This document shows, piece by piece, positions 7,001 through 51,973 of a stretch of 64,000 nt of DNA (positions are counted from its first letter, which is position 1; each line of letters opens with the position of its first letter). The stretch is from Candidatus Hydrogenedentales bacterium (GTDB taxonomy: Bacteria; Hydrogenedentota; Hydrogenedentia; Hydrogenedentales; SLHB01). The translations under genes were made by a program, and so were the position numbers. The notes under the pieces were generated by a model. It made no database searches, had not been told where the DNA came from, and saw only the letters and a program-made list of their open reading frames with translations. The stretch lies in contig JBMNGZ010000005.1 in the NCBI GenBank assembly GCA_050950105.1, positions 684,168-748,167 of the forward strand. The letters run 5' to 3'.

Positions 7001-7604
7001 GGAAGAGCGCCGCGCCGCAGGCGACAAGTTCTGGTGGTATGTCTGCACCGGGCCCAAAGCCCCGTATGCGACCCTGTTCATAGACCATCCGGGGACCGAA
7101 CTGCGCGTCTGGCTCTGGCAGACCTGGGAAAATAAGGTCGAGGGCATCCTCGTGTGGCAGAGCAACTATTGGACCAGCTCCGTCGCCTATCCGGATGCGC
7201 GACAGAACCCGTATGAAGATCCGATGGGTTGGGTGACCGGCTACAGCACCCCCGCAGGCACCCGGCGGCCTTGGGGGAACGGGGACGGACGATTCATCTA
7301 TCCGCCCGAAGCCGCCGCTGACGGCGCCTCTGCGGAGCCGGTGCTGGAGGGGCCCGTCGACAGCATCCGCTGGGAGATGTTGCGCGATGGCGTCGAGGAT
7401 TACGAATACTTTGTCATTCTCGAGAGGCTCTTCGAGGCGCGCCGGGAACAGATCCCCCTGGAAGAACGGGGGCTCTATGAAGGACTGCTGGAGGTTCCGG
7501 ACAGCATTTCAAAGAGCCTGACGGAGTTCACGAAAGATCCGACCCCGCTGGAGACGCGCCGCGATGCGATCGCCCGGGCTATCGAGGCGCTGAGCCGCCG
7601 CTAG
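4086..7604 (+). CDS. Large secreted DUF4091-domain protein, putative GH123-like glycoside hydrolase with N-terminal carbohydrate-binding-like region
   Basis: Signal peptide present. C-terminal region WWYVCTGP...ILVWQSNYW...GDGRFIYPP...SIRWEMLRDGVEDYEYFVIL matches the DUF4091 signature. Confidence 0.6.
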   Translation: MLVQWTRFTLILGAVAAFTLPVSLAQTVDVPNASFEEGQDGPAAWTLSGGSGQWLDGEASSGSRAIQVTGTSDSSNFWRSGPIALEPSSVYMVKFDARNWGGSGGTAITGPSFCNRDLGALTGEWKPYSSVFFTPEKEAPGEEGLRFGQWQHGGAMAFDNVTVFAVQPLYVDQEGIRLGEGERIDGLTYTFTAPHYSVSRNQSRPLIRQQCHFNTNRWSFGAGSELVYRHQLAGRHQVDAGIEVSLSYHSAGRLTAEASLDGKDWTPIGEAAEDGGGSFTLPENLFPANEIYVRLRGVVGDAAEGRAGSCSFTLNGYTYRATLDGSPVMAQGGTRFVAVTDATPGANVTVDSLGDALPGGANTIRLLVDNRADAPVSVTPTVSLTGDGGRLEQDCPSVELSAGASVLEIPYEVPGSGSFALEVALEPGPVFAFHADFHVPHLFETGYGERVPGSTADVALWRASSGWKIAQTRPAPTRQADAVQVRLARNEAEAVQFVITPQRPLTGLTVTAGDLAGPAGALLPASAVEVLRVRYVDVVYPTDETGVAAPWPDPLPPFRGPIDVAAGMNQPVWVRVNTPKDQPAGIYRGSLRVTADGFTAETPLEVEVYDFELPDRMTCVSAFGFSPGLVFEYQKLSDPEQRREVMDKYLSNFSRHHISPYDPVPLDAIGLTWSGLPKWQGGETDTETKKSGHASRFLNDPHTDQNVSLNYADRLSIPEKGLRVRFWYKTKEPGQRFLTSIRHFDASGTWMSGRNLDIISTGDGSWQSFERTISTFPEGAHSCAFAVFPTLWSDAGETTGALWLDEIVIEDAGTGQALSDEEGFEGTAPDRIQPVFDWTNWDRAMTHAIDELGFNSFKLPVQGLGGGTFHSRYEPSLLGYAEDTPEYQHIFRTYVQGLQEHLREKGWLDEAYVYWFDEPDPKDYEFVMNGFRKLKENAPDINRMLTEQIEPELIGGPNIWCPLTPAYDFEAAEERRAAGDKFWWYVCTGPKAPYATLFIDHPGTELRVWLWQTWENKVEGILVWQSNYWTSSVAYPDARQNPYEDPMGWVTGYSTPAGTRRPWGNGDGRFIYPPEAAADGASAEPVLEGPVDSIRWEMLRDGVEDYEYFVILERLFEARREQIPLEERGLYEGLLEVPDSISKSLTEFTKDPTPLETRRDAIARAIEALSRR

Positions 7605-41560: not shown

Positions 41561-41819
41561 GCGCGCCCTCCGGGTTCTTTTCTCGTAACTATAATACTTT
41601 TTATTACCAAACGCAACGGCGGCTCCGACTATTCCAGGAAAGGCCCGAAATCTGGCGCCCGCAATCGCCATTGAAGAGCTGCTCGTAAATTTGCGTTCAC
41701 CGCACTTTTTGCTGTTTAATCAAATCGATCACAAGCCCACTAAGTTGAAGAAAGCCAAAGTGCGCCGGGAAAAGCCGAAAAATCGGGTTGCTGGCGCACG
41801 AACGCGGGGAGGACGCACC

Positions 41820-45853: not shown

Positions 45854-47961
45854 TTGACCGCCAGGACGTGCACGAATCCAAACGAGGCGTTCGAGCCCGG
45901 AACGTCGTCGCTGGAGCAAACGGTGGCCGCGTTGCCCGGAATTGGCGACAAACGCGCTGAACTGCTCCGTAATCTCGACATCGTCACAATCCGCGATCTG
46001 CTGTTTTATTTACCCCGGACGTATGAAGATCGCCGCCGGGCTTGCCCGATTGCGCGCCTGAAGGAAGGCGACACCGCGACCATCCGGGCCGTGGTGGTGC
46101 GCTCGGCCACCCGGCGCCTGCGCCGCAGGCTCGCCGCCACCGAAGCCCTGCTGCGCGACGACTCGGGCGAAATCAAGGCCATCTGGTTTGGATTGGGGTT
46201 TCTCTCGCGCACGTTGACCTCCGGCAGGGAAGGGTTTTTCACGGGGACGGCCGGGAAATGGAACGGTCTGAGCCTGCGGAATCCCGACTACGAATTGTTG
46301 TCACATGACGACGAAGATCGGCTCCACACCGGCCGTATCGTGCCCGTCTACCGCCTCACCGAAAAGGTCTCCCAGCGGATGTTCCGCCGCTGGGTCCGCA
46401 TCGCTCTCGACGAAGCCCGGGATCTCGTCGAGGACCGGTTGCCTTCGGATATCGCCCGGCGCCAGGCCCATCGTGACGTGCGCCGGGCCATCGAGGCCGT
46501 CCATTTTCCCGGCAGCCTGGAAGAGGCCCGCAAAGCGCGCGACCGGTTCGCTTACGAAGAACTCCTCGGCATTCAACTCGGCATCCTTCAGGGCCGGGCG
46601 CGTCGTGCCCATGAGGAGGATGGCTACTGCCACGTTATCGACGGGCCGCGCCTGAACGCCCTGCGGCAATCGCTCCCGTTTGCGCTGACACGCGCCCAGA
46701 CGCGCGCCGTGGACGACATCCTGCGGGACATGGCGTCCGTTCGTCCGATGGTCCGGCTCCTTCAGGGGGACGTGGGTTGTGGAAAGACGGTCGTAGCCCT
46801 GCATGCGCTCGCGGCCGCCGCCGACGGAGGCTACCAGGCCGCGCTGATGGCCCCCACCGAGATCCTGGCCGAGCAGCACGCGCTGAACCTGCGTGAAACG
46901 CTCGAGCCGCTGGGCATGACGGTCGAGGTCCTGACCGGCTCGACGGGCGCCGCCCGCGCCGTCCGCCAACTCGCGGCTGCCGGCAGCGTCGACGTTCTCG
47001 TGGGCACCCAGGCGCTGATCCAGGAAAAGACCGGCTTCCGCAACCTGGGACTGGTTATCATCGACGAACAGCACCGCTTTCGGCGTCGTCCAGCGCGACG
47101 CCCTCGTGCAGAAGGGCGCTGCGCCCCGACATTCTCCACATGACCGCCACGCCCATCCCCCGCACCCTGGCCATCACGGTCTATGGCGGCATGGACATCA
47201 GCGTCATCGACGAACTGCCGCCGGGACGCCAGCCCGTCAAGACGCGCCGCGTCACCCCGGCCAAAGTCGAACGACTCTGTACGCCTACATCAGCCGAACA
47301 GGCCCGGAAAGGGTTCCAGACCTATATCGTGTGCCCGCTGGTCGAGGAATCCGACAAGCGCGCCCTCACCTCCGTGGTCCACCATTTCGAGGAGCTGTCC
47401 GCCGGACCCTTCTCGCGAACTTCGCACGGGGCTCCTCCACGGGCGTCAAGGCCTTCGCGGAGAAGGACGCGGTCATGCGCCGTTTCAAGCGAGGGCGAAC
47501 TCGACGTCCTCTTCACCACCACCGTCATCGAGGTCGGCATCGACTGTCCCTAACGCCACCACCATCGTGATTGAAGACGCGCCCCAGTTCGGGCTCACCC
47601 AGCTCCACCAGCTTCGGGGCCGGGTCGGGCGGGGCGCCGAGCCGTCCCACTGCTTTCTGCTGGGCAAGCACACGCCACGCCCGACGGCAAGAAGCGCGTC
47701 GAGGTCATGTGCGCCACCGGCAGCGGCTTCGACATCGCCGAGGCCGACCTCGAACTCCGCGGGCCCGGCGAATTCCGCGGCGTGCGCCAGTCCGGCCTGA
47801 GCGACCTGCGCATGTCGCCGACCTGCTCCGCGACGTGCGCCTGCTCGAGCAGGCCCGCCGCGAAGCCGAGGCCATCCTGCAGCACGATCCCGGCCTTGCC
47901 GCGCCCGAATATCCAGGCCCTGGCCCGGCTCGCCCAACGCTACGACGGAATGGCCCTCTGA
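45854..47961 (+). pseudogene. recG: ATP-dependent DNA helicase RecG. Full-length homology but at least 6-7 frame disruptions (~47083, ~47410-47470, ~47552, ~47690, ~47810, ~47900).
   Basis: Wedge domain present. Helicase motifs LLQGDVGCGKTVVA, IIDEQHRF|, [31 protein letters not shown]|[28 protein letters not shown] and [19 protein letters not shown] are spread over at least 6 ORFs in three frames. The 47083 shift sits in a T-run (cgctttcgg). Confidence 0.8.
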
Positions 47962-48211
47962 TCCGGGACCTGCGCGGCGGACCAGCGCAAAGTCCTGGAC
48001 GCGATGGACAAGATGGACAAGAGGGATGCCCCGGCCCCTGACGATTCCGCTGGAATCGAGGCCGCGGGCACGGCCCCTTTCGCCCATACCGCCCATGGGG
48101 TCCACACGTCCACCGCCGATGGCCACCATCCGCCGAGCGGGGCCAGGCATGACCCGTTGTCCTCCCCCGGGGTGTCTGCTATAGTAGATCCGCGGGAAGG
48201 AGGGGCTTTCC

Positions 48212-48771
48212 ATGCAACGGCCAACGGCTGTGACGGTATTCGGGGCCTTGAACATCGTTTTCGGGGTGATGGCGGTCACGCTTACGCCGCTTGTGCTCAT
48301 CACAATCAAGCTTGGCAACATCTACTTGAAAGCCTGCCTGAAGCGTCGCAAATGGAGAGCCCGCTCCAGAGGATGGTGCAGTCTCCCAGTTTTATGGCCT
48401 ACACCCGCGTGAGTGTGGCGGCGACCATGGCGGTGGGGGCTCTCCAGATTGCCGCGGGCATCGGCTTGCTGAAATTGCGGCCGTGGGCGCGTCATGTGTC
48501 GATCGGCTATGCGGTGTACAGCTGGGTGGCTACCACTGCCGGGGCGGTGATCAACTATTTTCTGATCTATGCCCCGATGCTGCAGGCCCCCTCGGGCGAA
48601 TCCGCACGCATCGTATTCGCAAGCTCCATTGTATGCACGGCCGTCGGCACGTTCACGTCGTTGATCTATCCGACGATCCTGCTCATCTTCATGTTGCGGC
48701 CCGAGATCAGGGCGGCCTTTCAACCCGGCTGGGGCACACCGCCGCCCGTTTCGCCGGGTTCGGAGTCTTGA
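48212..48771 (+). CDS. Small polytopic membrane protein (hypothetical). Frame break near 48350.
   Basis: MQRPTAVTVFGALNIVFGVMAVTLTPLVLITIKLG (TM1) continues in the other frame as ...SFMAYTRVSVAATMAVGALQIAAGIGLLKLRPWARHV...IYPTILLIFMLRPEIRAAF. Confidence 0.4.
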
Positions 48772-48788
48772 CCGTCTCATCCCCCAAC

Positions 48789-48825
48789 AAAAAAGCCCCC
48801 TGCGGGCAGGGGGCTTTTGTTTTTG
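48789..48825. terminator. Bidirectional rho-independent terminator: AAAAAAGCCCCCTGC-GG-GCAGGGGGCTTTTGTTTTT
   Basis: Perfect 9-bp GC-rich stem with 2-nt loop, flanked by an A-run and a T-run. It lies between the convergent membrane gene (+) and the sORF/PEP-CTERM genes (-). An exact copy sits at 50609-50645. Confidence 0.75.
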
Positions 48826-48845
48826 CCGGCGACGGGCGGCGGCGG

Positions 48846-48977
48846 ACTAGCGGGACATCCAGAGCATATTGGCAATCAGCAGTTGTTCGAGGCCCACGAA
48901 AAGCTCGGACTGGCTATCCCCATTGCGGTTTTCCGCACGCTTGAGGCCGGCAGCGCCATTTGTGACGCTGCCGGCCA
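48846..48977 (-). CDS. Conserved small ORF (43 aa), 41 nt downstream of the PEP-CTERM gene: MAGSVTNGAAGLKRAENRNGDSQSELFVGLEQLLIANMLWMSR
   Basis: The C-terminal 30 codons plus the following terminator are conserved (~85% nt identity) with a second copy at 50665-50785. 3 of 8 codon differences are synonymous. Weak RBS (aagg). No family recognised. Confidence 0.3.
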
Positions 48978-49017
48978 TAAAGCCTTGCCAATACCTAAGT
49001 TGCGACCGCTGTCCGAA

Positions 49018-49725
49018 TCAGCTCCGGCTGCGTTTACGCGCGGCTTTGAACGCCAACGCGGCAACACCAAGCCCCAGGAGAGTCATCGACGCGGGTTCAG
49101 GAACCACTGCCGATTCGATGGTGAGGGAGGCGTTGTCCAGCGGACCGTAATACCCGCTGAAGTAGGTCCATGACGGCGAAGAGTACCAGGGATTGCCGCA
49201 CCAGGTCGGAGTCGGTACGCCGCTGTAGCTCAGCTCGAAGGTGGCGTAGAAGGGGTCCCCATTCTCTTCAAACAAGGCGGTGACTTGAGCTGCGAGATCC
49301 GCATGCCCGGCGATTTCGTTTCCATTGGCCCAATCGGGATCGGGCATGTAATACTCGCTGTAGTCCGCTGAGAAGTTGAAATCGACGATCGTTCCATAAT
49401 AGGCGTAACGAGACTCCGGATCGCTCGACGAATACCAGGGATCATCGGGCATGTTGGACAAATAGACCCAGCCCGAATCGAACCACCACTGAATGTCCCA
49501 CTGGGTATAGGCTCCCGTCCAGTTGTTGGCGAACACGAATCCAAACTGGTTGTCCCACTGAGTTCCGATTTCCCTGGTGTCAGGCAGGCCGGAGGGGCTG
49601 TTTGGGCTGGTCGACCAGGTCTGAGGCTCGGTGATGATGTTGTCATAGGTGCCGAAGATAGGCGCGGCGTGCGCCACGCCCAGGGTGATCAGACAGACAG
49701 CCAATGCCATACAGATGTTTTTCAT
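49018..49725 (-). CDS. PEP-CTERM sorting-domain protein (exosortase substrate), secreted
   Basis: Signal peptide MKNICMALAVCLITLGVAHA. W/Y/G/D-rich repeats. C-terminal VPEPASMTLLGLGVAALAFKAARKRSRS is the canonical PEP-CTERM motif (TM helix plus Arg cluster). Confidence 0.85.
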   Translation of the reverse strand: MKNICMALAVCLITLGVAHAAPIFGTYDNIITEPQTWSTSPNSPSGLPDTREIGTQWDNQFGFVFANNWTGAYTQWDIQWWFDSGWVYLSNMPDDPWYSSSDPESRYAYYGTIVDFNFSADYSEYYMPDPDWANGNEIAGHADLAAQVTALFEENGDPFYATFELSYSGVPTPTWCGNPWYSSPSWTYFSGYYGPLDNASLTIESAVVPEPASMTLLGLGVAALAFKAARKRSRS

Positions 49726-50282
49726 GCGAACTACTCCTCGTTACTCTGGCTACGCGAGGGGAATAACGTATGCCAGTAATGCATATCTCGGGCATTTCAG
49801 CGTGTCGTGGTCCCCCTACAACTTCGAATTACGCACGCCGACTTTCTGTCATGAAGATGCTGCAATATTCATGCCGTTTTTTGAGAAATTTCATAAGTGG
49901 CGACAATCCAGTCTTTTATGTTAACCATGCCACAGTGGCTGAATTAGCCATCTGGTCGTCTGTTAAGCAAACGTGAACACTCTATGGCCGATATAAAATT
50001 GCATTCTTTCGAGATAAACTTGGATATAGAAGGTCGATATCCGTATTTTGCGTAAAAATCGTGGTTCCGGGCCTTTCAGGCGTCTCCCTACGTTGCCTGT
50101 CAGGGTTTGGGGGGGACCTGCAAGCCAAAAAGAGGCGTACTGCGAATTATCGTTGAATTTCGCCCCGGCAGAGCCTGCCGCCAGCACATGAACCGAAAAT
50201 CTCGTTTGGAGGCACAGGCGGCAGCGCCTGTGCCGACGCTGCCGCCCATAAGTATAAAATCGGGTCAACAGTGTCGATATGT

Positions 50283-50600
50283 CCCGTAATCAGCCCGGGT
50301 TGCGCTTTCGTACGGCTTTGAACGCCAACGCGGCAACACCAAGCCCCGGGAGGGTCATCGACGCGGGTTTAAGAGCCACCGCCGATTCGATGGTGAGGGA
50401 GGCGTTGTCCAGCGGACCGTAATACCCGCTGAAGTAGGTCCATGACGGCGGAGAGTACCCGGGATTGCCGCAGCAGGTCGGAGTTGGTACGCCGCTGTAG
50501 CTCAGCTCGAAGGTGGCGTAGAAGGGGTCCCCATTTCTTCAAAGAGGGGAGTGACTTGAGCTGCGAGTTGCGCGTGCCCGGCGATTTTGCTTGCATTCTT
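50283..50600 (-). pseudogene. 3' fragment (~105 codons) of a PEP-CTERM paralog, 5'-truncated, with indel and degraded motif (…ALKPASMTLPGLGVAALAFKAVRKRNPG*)
   Basis: ~88% nt identity to 49021-49330. Has a 1-nt deletion (cccattctcttc > cccatttcttc). PEP changed to LKP. Homology ends at ~50600, where the terminator copy is fused. Confidence 0.6.
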
Positions 50601-50608
50601 CCGTTTAT

Positions 50609-50645
50609 CAAAAAAGCCCCCTGCGGGCAGGGGGCTTTTGTTTTT
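50609..50645. terminator. Second copy of the AAAAAAGCCCCCTGC-GG-GCAGGGGGCTTTTGTTTTT terminator
   Basis: Identical hairpin to the one at 48795-48814. Precedes the duplicated sORF tail in the same relative arrangement. Confidence 0.7.
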
Positions 50646-50664
50646 GCCGGCGACGGGCGGCGGA

Positions 50665-50841
50665 CTAGCGGGACATCCAGAGCATGTTGGCAATCAGCAG
50701 TTGTTCGAGGCTCATTAAAAGTTCGGACTGGCTGTCCCCATGGTGGTTTTCAGCGCGGGTTGACGCCGACAGCGGCACCGCACCTCGCGCCTGTTTCGCT
50801 GCGGTACACTCGTTCCAGAGCATCGTTTCTTCCCCTTTCAT
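50665..50841 (-). CDS. Second copy of the conserved small ORF (…RAENHHGDSQSELLMSLEQLLIANMLWMSR*). N-terminus uncertain.
   Basis: Shares the C-terminal ~38 codons and stop with the sORF at 48846. Lies downstream of the CDP-sugar epimerase gene. Only the M58 start (MKGEETMLWNEC...) was considered. Confidence 0.3.
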   Translation of the reverse strand: MKGEETMLWNECTAAKQARGAVPLSASTRAENHHGDSQSELLMSLEQLLIANMLWMSR

Positions 50842-50977
50842 CCGGCGCCATACCGGACTAAACAACGGGCGCGTTCTGACCAGAACGCGCCCGAATTGGC
50901 TCTTGATTCGCTTTGTCAACGTAAACAACCGGGGTGGGGCGGCTATTCCGAAGGTGTGCGTACGGCGGGACCGTGGT

Positions 50978-51973
50978 TTAGCGCAGGAACCACGGGTTCG
51001 TCTGGTACCACTGAATCGTTTTTTGCAGGGACTCCAAAAGTGGAGTGCGCGCCTGAAAGCCGAGGGATGTGGCCAGCGTTGTGTCCGGCCAGGCATCGAG
51101 CGGCTCATCCGCCCGTTTTGGCAGTGCGCCCGGGCGGAGCAGCTCCGTTGCGCCCAGCTGCCCGGCCAGCCGTTCCGCGAGCTTCCGGATGGAGACCGGG
51201 GGACAGGCCGGTGCGTTGATTAGCGGAGGGAAGGCCTCATCGGCGGCAAGGCGTGCGGCGGCTTCGAGGAGCAGCCCCGCCGCGTCTTCAACGTACAGGA
51301 ACGCCCGGCGCTGATTGCCTTCGGTCATGGGGATGGTCTCCCCGCGGAGGGCTTTTCCGATGAGTTCCGGCACGAACAGCGCTGGAGGCTGGCCCGGCCC
51401 AAAGACGATCGGCAAGCGCAGGACACACGCACGGAGCGCATGCCCCCGCACGGCCTCGAGTACATGCTCCGTGGCGGCAAGTTTCCCTGCTCCGTAGGCG
51501 TTGACTGGCTCACAAGGCCGGTCTTCGGTCCACGGCATGGGCGCCGCCCCGTATTCCATCTGCGAGCCGGGCAGGACCAGGACCGGGCGCTCATCGGCCG
51601 GCAGGGCGTGCAGGGCGTCGACCAGAGAGGCCGCCAAACCGGCGTTTCCCGCGAAGACCCGGGCCCAGTCTTCCACGCCGGTACTTCGCTCGATCGAGCC
51701 CGCGCAGTGCACGACCACCACGGGTCGCAGTTCCTGCAGGATGTGGAGGAGCGCCTGCTGGTCCATGAGGTCCGCGGCGTGCACTTCAACGGGACGCATG
51801 CCCAGCGATTCACGCACGCGCTGCGCCCGTGGGGATTCCTGGGTAAGGTCTATTCCCGCGATCTCTGCGCCCTGGCGCTGTGCCGACGCGGCCGTGTGAA
51901 TGCCAATGAAACCCTGAATGCCTGTAATCAGGACCCTGCGACCGGCCAGGGAAAAAAGCGCTGTGCTCGACAT
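50978..51973 (-). CDS. NAD-dependent epimerase/dehydratase (SDR) family. Likely the CDP-4-keto-6-deoxyhexose reductase/epimerase step.
   Basis: VLITGIQGFIGIH Rossmann motif. ~330 aa extended SDR. Last gene of the rfbF-rfbG-SDR operon. Confidence 0.75.
   Translation of the reverse strand: MSSTALFSLAGRRVLITGIQGFIGIHTAASAQRQGAEIAGIDLTQESPRAQRVRESLGMRPVEVHAADLMDQQALLHILQELRPVVVVHCAGSIERSTGVEDWARVFAGNAGLAASLVDALHALPADERPVLVLPGSQMEYGAAPMPWTEDRPCEPVNAYGAGKLAATEHVLEAVRGHALRACVLRLPIVFGPGQPPALFVPELIGKALRGETIPMTEGNQRRAFLYVEDAAGLLLEAAARLAADEAFPPLINAPACPPVSIRKLAERLAGQLGATELLRPGALPKRADEPLDAWPDTTLATSLGFQARTPLLESLQKTIQWYQTNPWFLR

Follow-up and report, generated by a model that had tools for sequence, protein, structure and literature searches.

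A conserved small ORF, its terminator and an apparent truncated duplicate of both flank a PEP-CTERM array in a Hydrogenedentota genome

Background

Bacterial small proteins of fewer than ~60 amino acids that consist largely of a single amphipathic or membrane helix form a class that includes MgrB, AcrZ and SgrT. The small open reading frame considered here, termed sORF52, resembles this class in its size, in having a single confidently predicted helix, and in standing alone as a gene that carries its own terminator and neighbours a gene for a membrane protein. It differs in showing no sequence similarity to described families in Pfam, NCBIfam or PDB, and its helix is of the amphipathic type.

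A second described system that bears on the locus is the PEP-CTERM/exosortase system (Haft et al. 2006, PMC1569441). RpoN-dependent PEP-CTERM genes are known, a -24/-12 promoter having been mapped for pepA, and in sludge bacteria such genes have been linked to the formation of flocs (PMC9850573). The locus encodes a 235 aa protein that shares with this system the sorting tail and an upstream motif of the -24/-12 type; the repeated module that is the subject of this analysis is not part of it. A search of the literature combining PEP-CTERM with Hydrogenedentes retrieved nothing.

The remaining features of the locus have more general precedents. The hairpin of the module is like other rho-independent bidirectional terminators in its GC-rich stem, bordered on one side by an A-tract and on the other by a U-tract, and in lying between convergent genes, its only oddity being that two identical copies are found 1.8 kb apart. 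Likewise, as in relics of tandem duplication with reciprocal loss, there is a novel joint, in which the 3' end of recG lies beside the 3' part of an epimerase gene, along with truncated gene copies, deletions at short direct repeats and conversion-like mosaics. The locus departs from the usual relics of this kind in that the distal terminator has seemingly been reused by the adjoining PEP-CTERM gene, and in that a new in-frame start codon has re-created an ORF.

Results and Discussion

Organisation of the locus

The window is the whole stretch of 64,000 nucleotides that was analysed. On its minus strand, an epimerase gene is followed by the proximal copy of the module, a 3' fragment of a PEP-CTERM gene, an AT-rich spacer, an intact PEP-CTERM gene and the distal copy of the module; all of the elements listed in the initial annotation were located, in the order that it gave. 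The proximal module (50609-50777, minus strand) lies between the epimerase gene and the PEP-CTERM fragment, and the distal module (48788-48958, minus strand), comprising the tail of sORF52 and a terminator, matches it over 172 nt at 89.5% identity (E = 1e-61). The repeat is thus as described, although its extent is ~170 nt, rather than ~135 bp. A 55 nt run that includes the terminator is 100% identical between the two copies, and a sequence similarity search found no third copy within the window.

Each module ends in a hairpin that a terminator scan detects on both strands, with 12 pairs, in agreement with the proposal that these are bidirectional terminators. The proximal intrinsic terminator of sORF52 (50612-50639) has U-tracts on both strands, and the distal terminator (48791-48818), which has the same sequence, separates the PEP-CTERM gene from the convergent gene membr186. 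Reading the module on the plus strand was rejected, as this yields only antisense ORFs that are not conserved.

The intact PEP-CTERM gene (49018-49725, minus strand) encodes the 235 aa protein, and has the only PEP-CTERM tail in the window. It scores 27.7 bits against PF07589 and 16.4 bits against TIGR02595, passing the respective cut-offs of 20.7 and 16 bits. Upstream of it, as had been claimed, is an AT-rich regulatory region (~49726-50218, minus strand; GC 0.44-0.45) homologous to the spacer between the PEP-CTERM genes of L004. This contains a sigma-54-like GGCAT-N5-TTGC sequence (49862-49875, minus strand) that is found ~155 nt from the ATG, the same distance as in L014 and in the second PEP-CTERM gene of L012 (PEP B). 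The frameshifted fragment (50288-50597, minus strand), the 3' part of a PEP-CTERM paralogue that is now a pseudogene lacking both promoter and start codon, is 309 nt in length, where 318 bp had been given; it is 91% identical to 49016-49326, carries a 1 nt deletion such that tblastn matches it in two frames, and has ALKP in place of VPEP, as the reported change from PEP to LKP implied. Strain L010 has this fragment as well. No exosortase gene is listed in the gene table within 10 kb on either side of the PEP-CTERM gene.

Directly after the intact PEP-CTERM gene is a hairpin (48945-48976, minus strand) with 14 pairs and no U-tract. Both of its arms have changed together relative to other cassettes, from GGGCGG/CCGCC to GGCCGG/CCGGCC. 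This hairpin recurs at 50219-50251 (minus strand), after the PEP-CTERM fragment, as a 33 nt third repeat that the initial annotation missed; this second occurrence is 82% identical to 48948-48980 and aligns with the hairpins of six cassettes.

Coding evidence for sORF52

The epimerase-side copy of the small ORF, sORF52 (50665-50823 including the stop, minus strand), has 52 codons, its product starting with MLWNEC and finishing with LEQLLIANMLWMSR immediately before the stop. Comparison with its orthologues indicates that it is a genuine, previously unnamed protein-coding gene, and the module is the 3' two-thirds of this gene plus its intrinsic terminator. The orthologues, found in five diverged lineages, are 50-52 codons long, and all retain the frame, start and stop, beginning MFW or MLW and finishing WM(S/A)R-stop. 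The final arginine codon may be CGC, CGA or CGG, and the stop TAG or TAA. Frame-breaking indels beneath an intact hairpin had been named as the mark of a non-coding element; the sole indel among the orthologues is of 6 nt, and is in frame.

Variable positions are concentrated at third codon positions (41 of 52) relative to second codon positions (21 of 52). The comparison of substitution rates across further copies that had been suggested gave pN/pS values of 0-0.27 for codons 33-52, the C-terminal 20, and of 0.42-1.0 for codons 1-32, where some comparisons are near-neutral. The constraint on coding suspected from the two copies in the window is therefore evident among orthologues that keep frame, length, start and stop through many synonymous changes. 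The count on which that suspicion was founded, three synonymous differences out of eight, needs correction: over the 30 shared sense codons there are ten differences, five of them synonymous.

The N-terminal half of the product is basic and poorly conserved, and its C-terminal part is a strongly conserved amphipathic helix. AlphaFold2, supplied with the five-row alignment, places this helix at residues 30-51, with pLDDT values of 86-96 by 10-residue block; its mean hydropathy of 0.65-0.82 is that of an amphipathic helix and not of a transmembrane segment. The protein would most likely bind the membrane surface or a partner, possibly the membr186 product.

An alternative is that the module is a non-coding RNA element, either a 3'-UTR element or a small RNA with a terminator, in which the ORF is incidental. 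Such an element might be suspected from the window, where the 55 non-coding nucleotides are more conserved than the ORF, and where the folding energy of the distal RNA is far lower than that of shuffled controls (z = -5.1), but two ordinary hairpins explain this low value. Rfam gives no support: at gathering thresholds the whole window yields only a tRNA elsewhere, and at permissive thresholds nothing relevant is found in 48600-51100, the best local matches being far below threshold. Furthermore, between the five lineages the spacer separating the stop from the terminator is unlike in sequence, and the terminators themselves differ in sequence while the stem is kept; for instance, the shorter stem of L017 has, as read by eye, a double change from C-G to U-A. 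As the spacer and stem vary while the coding frame is kept, with substitutions gathering at third codon positions, a conserved 3'-UTR is rejected for the proximal copy, and a non-coding explanation of the module as a whole is very improbable.

Distribution of sORF52 and its relationship to PEP-CTERM genes

Sequence searches with the small ORFs and their alignment found no match in Pfam, NCBIfam or PDB. Both a word-indexed protein search and an exhaustive HMM search returned only the small proteins of this locus (P0001-P0005), a family of five clusters among 1.84 billion representatives, and these two database searches, together with scans for peptide patterns in metagenome contigs and in species genomes, detected the module at this locus alone. 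Scanning a genome collection with a degenerate coding pattern matched only one MAG. The carriers are a few Hydrogenedentota that, judging from contig names, come from bioreactor and activated-sludge metagenomes, and the source records either call the products 'hypothetical protein' or leave them unnamed. Among named relatives the closest is a Candidatus Hydrogenedentota MAG, placed by the NCBI taxonomy in the FCB group, rather than in the PVC group that had been suggested for further searches.

The epimerase gene (50978-51973, minus strand) encodes an NAD-dependent epimerase/dehydratase (PF01370, 3e-39) and ends a CDP-sugar operon in which it is preceded by genes for a cytidylyltransferase and a CDP-glucose 4,6-dehydratase. 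The synteny of this region is kept in L012, L015, L017, L014 and L018. On the other side, the conserved neighbour of sORF52 is membr186 (48212-48771, plus strand), a convergent gene for a 186 aa membrane protein with no Pfam match at the curated cut-off. In the window it reads as frameshifted at ~48311, through a 1 nt difference from L001 in a T-run; using the L001 protein as the query, tblastn finds homologues of 52-81% identity in L012, L015, L017 and L019.

The initial annotation had proposed that the small ORF follows each PEP-CTERM cassette, raising the possibility that it and the terminator are a dedicated accessory, a micro-protein co-transcribed after every PEP-CTERM gene. The window and strains L009, L010 and L016 do have an intact 43-codon ORF 37 nt after an intact PEP-CTERM gene, with a terminator common to both. 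However, what lies ahead of the proximal copy is the epimerase gene and not a PEP-CTERM gene, and the PEP-CTERM fragment comes after it. Nor is the small ORF a fixed follower of these cassettes in other strains: in L015 and L017 the order is epimerase, sORF52, terminator and convergent membr186, and in L019 sORF52 faces membr186 homologues, with no PEP-CTERM gene at that position in any of the three. Conversely, the two PEP-CTERM genes of L012/L004 (PEP A and PEP B) are each followed by the cassette hairpin only, and that of L014, which lies between membr186 and recG, has no such small ORF directly after it. The distal copy in L012 has decayed, and genome, metagenome and protein searches place the module at no other locus. 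Given the sORF52 loci free of PEP-CTERM genes, and the PEP-CTERM genes without the module directly after them, sORF52 is not a PEP-CTERM accessory, a role for the module as a whole that is extremely improbable. The tempting link between a micro-protein and exosortase/PEP-CTERM cassettes was wrong, and is hereby removed. As had been described, the PEP-CTERM cassettes form a decayed tandem array, but the small ORF does not belong to it.

Origin of the distal copy

The distal module is, to judge from its alignment with sORF52, a truncated duplicate of that gene, with a 5' end drawn from other DNA. It overlaps a chimeric 43-codon ORF (48847-48978, minus strand), also called in strains L009 and L010 (P0003), in which a cassette hairpin has supplied a start codon and 11 codons, joined to the last 31 codons of the duplicated sORF52; the first 11 codons align with the hairpin found after every PEP-CTERM gene, codons 2-11 being encoded by the hairpin at 48945-48976. 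In L012 the distal junction is composite: the cassette hairpin is succeeded by 37 nt of the recG 3' end (92% identity), 76 nt of the epimerase gene (88%) and then a 121 nt sORF52 tail (89%). Neither a stop codon nor the left arm of the terminator survives in the L012 distal copy, which shows an estimated 5.5 non-synonymous changes relative to the proximal copy of that lineage. In L010 and L009 the distal copy is a mosaic, the 5' part being of the distal type and the 3' part of the proximal type.

The best overall explanation, which we consider likely, is that sORF52 and its terminator are resident, and that the second copy arose through local duplication, deletion and gene conversion. sORF52 itself is the resident gene between the last gene of the CDP-sugar operon and the convergent membr186, with which it shares one terminator. 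Under this model, a PEP-CTERM cassette, composed of the AT-rich region with its sigma-54-type promoter, the gene and the hairpin, would have come to this position by a local tandem duplication that reached from the 3' end of the epimerase gene to that of recG, as suggested by the junctions, and the duplicated copies would then have lost different parts, so that a truncated second sORF52 tail, with its terminator, was left beyond the PEP-CTERM array. In the lineage of the window, a deletion between 11-12 nt direct repeats probably fused the cassette hairpin to the truncated copy, generating the chimeric ORF.

Local duplication is indicated by the chromosomal recG and epimerase fragments carried by the distal repeat of L012, and the history of tandem duplication is one reconstructed from a single composite junction in one lineage; the spacers between membr186 and recG in different lineages share no relic of a lost PEP-CTERM copy. 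Gene conversion with the proximal copy, which would keep the distal copy similar to it, is suggested both by the mosaic in L010 and L009 and by the 55 nt that are identical in the window though the spacer varies between lineages. The distal terminator is now the strongest one predicted both for the PEP-CTERM gene, downstream of which the cassette hairpin of the window lacks the U-tract present in that after PEP B of L012, and for the convergent membr186. The locus is a clean example of relocation and copy number variation of a PEP-CTERM cassette, which illustrates local duplication, microhomology deletion and gene conversion, and how a duplicated terminator can be reused.

The two copies might instead be the old flanks of a mobile PEP-CTERM island, which the PEP-free relatives lost through recombination between them, in which case the module would mark an excisable cassette. 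Direct repeats of ~170 nt flank the array, the content of which differs among strains, some having no cassette, some a single one located elsewhere, some one together with a fragment and some two, and recombination between the repeats would yield exactly the arrangement in L015; the PEP-free state of L015 and L017 could in principle be derived in this way, rather than being ancestral. Yet there is no integrase or transposase in or adjoining the array, the chromosomal fragments in the L012 distal repeat point to local duplication, and the most divergent lineages, L017 and L019, are without the array, making such an island improbable.

Compatible with an origin by local duplication is the suggestion of a truncated but functional paralogue: the 43-codon ORF would be transcribed together with the PEP-CTERM gene, having acquired a start codon from the cassette hairpin by a change of ACG to ATG and kept the C-terminal helix. 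In its favour, the two parts are joined in frame, four strains of the window lineage have the ORF uninterrupted, and the conserved helix LEQLLIANMLWMSR has not changed. On the other hand, a 14-pair GC-rich hairpin right after the AUG should hinder initiation, the window copy has three consecutive unique non-synonymous changes (F-V-G), and the counterpart in L012 is clearly decaying; the tails of the window and L010 differ by Nd = 4 and Sd = 3, a comparison confounded by gene conversion. A function for this ORF is therefore doubtful. Were it a working paralogue, the PEP-CTERM transcript of the window lineage would also deliver a micro-protein. What is new at the locus is a narrow family of small proteins, the rest being ordinary duplication and decay; this is a modest outcome, comprising clear coding evidence, a conserved membrane-protein neighbour and a leader.

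Candidate control elements of sORF52

Between the epimerase stop and sORF52, the terminator scan identified a GC-rich hairpin (50866-50893, minus strand), which forms a 12-pair consensus helix in five lineages, the top of its stem showing G-U pairs and double substitutions; its counterpart in L017 and L022 is without a U-tract. It is a candidate terminator for the operon, leader hairpin for sORF52, or both. Also on this side of the gene is a GGAATA-N17-GTTT motif (50923-50949, minus strand), a candidate promoter of sORF52, that is invariant in five lineages, the spacer varying in sequence and being fixed in length. In its GGAAT-N18-GTT form, the motif resembles the SigR/SigH consensus of ECF-type promoters; a crude search of the window for an ECF sigma gene, using an E. 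coli RpoE query, gave no convincing match. The conservation of the motif suggests that sORF52 may have a promoter of its own and be expressed by way of a structured leader. The more ambitious combination, in which sORF52 founds a new, lineage-restricted micro-protein family controlled by an alternative-sigma-type promoter and by a translational leader, and hairpin fusion has made a working paralogue of the 43-codon ORF, is decidedly doubtful. Where 0.02 sites would be expected, the window has two GGAATA-N17-GTTT sites, the second of them upstream of a znu-type operon.

Organisation of the locus and its relatives

On the minus strand of the window, an epimerase gene (50978-51973) is followed by a GC-rich hairpin (50866-50893), a 52-codon small ORF ending at 50665 (sORF52) and, after it, a terminator at 50612-50639. 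Next come a 3' fragment of a PEP-CTERM gene (50288-50597), which is read as frameshifted because its tblastn match takes two frames, a 33-nt hairpin (50219-50251), an AT-rich stretch extending from this hairpin down to 49726, and an intact gene matching PEP-CTERM models (49018-49725), to which the fragment aligns over 309 nt with 91% identity. A second hairpin of the same kind (48945-48976) and a second copy of the small-ORF tail and terminator (the distal module, 48788-48958) then lead to the convergent gene for a 186-aa membrane protein (membr186), which ends at 48771 on the plus strand and faces the distal terminator. The distal module is 89.5% identical to the proximal copy across 172 nt (E = 1e-61), with a 55-nt stretch including the terminator the same in both; neither further module copies nor further PEP-CTERM tails are found in the 64-kb window. 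The initial annotation had described the two modules, the PEP-CTERM fragment, the intact gene and the terminators correctly, save for small counts; where it gave three of eight differences as synonymous, a recount finds ten in the shared 30 codons, half of them synonymous.

The PEP-CTERM protein of the window is also encoded on JGI metagenome contigs nearly identical to it (L001-L003). Of 185,579 species genomes, just one, a Candidatus Hydrogenedentota MAG (L004), matched a degenerate pattern coding for the tail of the ORF; relatives had been assumed to lie among the PVC bacteria, but NCBI taxonomy places this phylum in the FCB group. By searching proteins with a word index and, exhaustively, with a profile, and by scanning metagenome contigs for a peptide pattern, we added further window-lineage strains (L009, L010, L011 and L016), long contigs of the L004 lineage (L012 and L013) and three more distant lineages (L014/L015, L017/L018/L022 and L019-L021). 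Across the genome, protein-database and metagenome-contig searches, every module match sits at one locus. Some metagenome contigs begin or stop inside the module (the start of L010, the end of L011, and L016), as expected if a 170-nt repeat disrupts short-read assemblies.

A narrow family of small proteins

Comparison between lineages identifies the epimerase-side copy, sORF52, as a real protein-coding gene that ends in an intrinsic terminator of the usual kind. Full-length orthologues are present in all five lineages (52, 52, 52, 52 and 50 codons, the sole length difference being a 6-nt indel), starting with MFW or MLW and ending in LEQL(L/I/M)IANMLWM(S/A)R and a stop codon. Variable positions number 41 of 52 at third codon positions and 21 of 52 at second positions; pN/pS is 0-0.27 in the C-terminal 20 codons, with pS of 0.31-0.73, and 0.42-1.0 in the first 32. 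Even close copies vary in the last Arg codon (CGC, CGA or CGG) and in the stop (TAG or TAA). The coding constraint suggested earlier is thus upheld. The alternative, a conserved 3'-UTR element, fails on the same comparison: a stem-loop and U-tract are present in every lineage, and the sequences of the post-stop spacer and terminator vary between them. A conserved RNA element would not show such a pattern, in which the ORF is kept whereas the spacer and terminator are not, and Rfam agrees.

The AlphaFold2 prediction, based on five sequences, contains one confident helix (residues 30-51; pLDDT 86-96 by 10-residue block), amphipathic rather than a membrane span, and is of low confidence across the N-terminal half. 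No relatives are found in Pfam, NCBIfam or the PDB; sORF52 represents a narrow, previously unnamed small-protein family. Our best guess, held with low confidence, is that its product is a small modulator binding the membr186 protein or the membrane surface; nothing points to a mechanistic tie to exosortase sorting.

Stable and variable neighbours

A common order is found in L012, L014, L015, L017 and L018: a divergent glycosyltransferase gene, glucose-1-phosphate cytidylyltransferase, CDP-glucose 4,6-dehydratase, epimerase, sORF52 and its terminator, then convergent membr186 and recG. The end of membr186 lies directly after the sORF52 terminator in L015 and L017, with no PEP-CTERM gene between; sORF52 is likewise opposite membr186 homologues in L019; L014, with an sORF52 identical to that of L015, has its PEP-CTERM cassette at another site, between membr186 and recG; and L012/L004 have two intact PEP-CTERM genes (PEP A and PEP B) between sORF52 and membr186, each with a cassette hairpin, and not the module, as its next element. 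As sORF52 is tail-to-tail with membr186 throughout these gene orders, its stable context is this facing position, usually after the epimerase gene, with the PEP-CTERM cassette as the variable element. The proposed micro-protein is a real gene, but its assignment to the PEP-CTERM system was mistaken, sORF52 having no such gene beside it in L015 and L017; nor does the module follow each cassette, given the arrangement in L012/L004.

The most divergent lineage carries two tandem paralogues of the membrane protein (L019, 258-1489; 55% and 38% identity). L014 (3636-5108) and L015 (6797-7172), of one lineage with identical sORF52 regions, differ in the whole membr186-recG spacer, which is ~1.4 kb with the PEP-CTERM cassette in the former and ~0.37 kb of unrelated sequence in the latter. 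Between 42000 and 48500, the window differs by scattered 1-nt indels from the otherwise identical contig L001, with 247 mismatches in the recG region (46000-48000) alone; recG and membr186 (~48311) read as frameshifted in the window, membr186 differing in the length of a T-run. Assembly error and a mosaic of strains are both possible causes.

Origin of the distal copy

The locus is best read as an ordinary, well-resolved case of local duplication, microhomology deletion and gene conversion around a copy-number-variable PEP-CTERM cassette. In L012, the sequence after PEP B is composite: the cassette hairpin, here with its U-tract, then 37 nt with 92% identity to the recG 3' end, 76 nt matching the interior of the epimerase gene at 88% identity and 121 nt with 89% identity to the sORF52 tail. 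A tandem duplication of a segment running from within the epimerase gene to just inside recG would be expected to leave such a joint, with the recG 3' end fused to a 3' part of the epimerase gene and both in one orientation. The ancestor would have been L014-like (epimerase, sORF52, terminator, membr186, PEP-CTERM gene, hairpin, recG), and the L012 order would have arisen once the first copy lost membr186 and the second lost the PEP-CTERM cassette; no relics of the lost copies were found in the membr186-recG spacers. The distal copy of L012 is decaying, with CAA in place of the stop codon, the left terminator arm deleted, and changes relative to the proximal copy estimated at 5.5 non-synonymous and 4.5 synonymous.

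In the window lineage, the right arm of the hairpin (GCGCTGCCGGCC) continues directly into the TCAAGCGTGCGGAAAAC of the sORF52 tail. An L012-like ancestor would have had the near-identical GCACTGCCAGCC at its epimerase/sORF52 joint, and a deletion running from the hairpin arm to that sequence would take out just the U-tract and the two pieces from recG and the epimerase gene. The distal 43-codon ORF (48847-48978) is a chimera of the cassette hairpin and the sORF52 tail, because its ATG, which is ACG in other cassettes, and first 11 codons (MAGSVTNGAAG) are the hairpin itself. The 14-pair GC-rich stem directly after its AUG argues against efficient initiation.

The distal copy of the window has GAG, AAT and an extra CCG in common with the L012 proximal gene, and the window proximal copy has changes of its own. 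In L010/L009, the distal copy is a mosaic: its 5' part is of the distal type, and from GAA CTT TTA ATG AGC onward it is of the proximal type. These three patterns, together with 55 identical nucleotides in a spacer unconserved between lineages, are read as signs of gene conversion between the two copies, not of selection for a common function. Similarity within the window is no evidence of constraint, for the dead PEP-CTERM fragment matches its paralogue just as well as one module matches the other.

Since the window hairpin at 48945-48976 lacks a U-tract, the module terminator (48791-48818), which also faces membr186, is the strongest of those predicted downstream of the PEP-CTERM gene. The reverse holds in L012, where the hairpin keeps its U-tract and the module terminator is broken. 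This complementary pattern suggests that the window lineage has kept the distal module because it serves as a terminator, making reuse of the duplicated terminator probable. That both arms of the 14-pair stem have changed jointly relative to other cassettes suggests that this hairpin, too, is still of importance. Every PEP-CTERM cassette has a GC-rich hairpin ~40 nt after the stop codon (48945-48976 and 50219-50251 in the window, 7395-7434 and 8705-8744 in L012, ~5010-5042 in L014), with compensatory changes between lineages and a U-tract in some copies only.

Candidate regulatory signals

In all five lineages, the interval between the epimerase stop codon and sORF52 contains GGAATA and, beyond a spacer that is constant in length but not in sequence, GTTT (form GGAAT-N18-GTT). 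The exact motif, GGAATA-N17-GTTT, occurs twice in the window against 0.02 expected, at 50923-50949 and 41609-41635 (both minus strand), each time intergenic and upstream of genes; the second site precedes a small regulator-like gene, after which come the znuA/ABC transporter genes of an operon. It may represent a promoter class of the source organism. Downstream of the motif, the sORF52 leader (50824-50910, minus strand) includes an AAUCAnGArC box and a hairpin of 12 pairs, both conserved, as well as a Shine-Dalgarno sequence. Pairing is possible between the box and sORF52 codons 2-3, with one matched double change (GAGC with GCUC in the window, GAAC with GUUC elsewhere), and may exert translational control.

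A sigma-54-like motif, GGCAY-N5-TTGC, lies at 49862-49875 (minus strand), at a conserved distance upstream of PEP-CTERM start codons (~155 nt for PEP B in L012 and ~160 nt for the L014 gene). This agrees with the RpoN dependence published for one PEP-CTERM gene (PMC9850573); the motif is mutated in strains L010 and L016.
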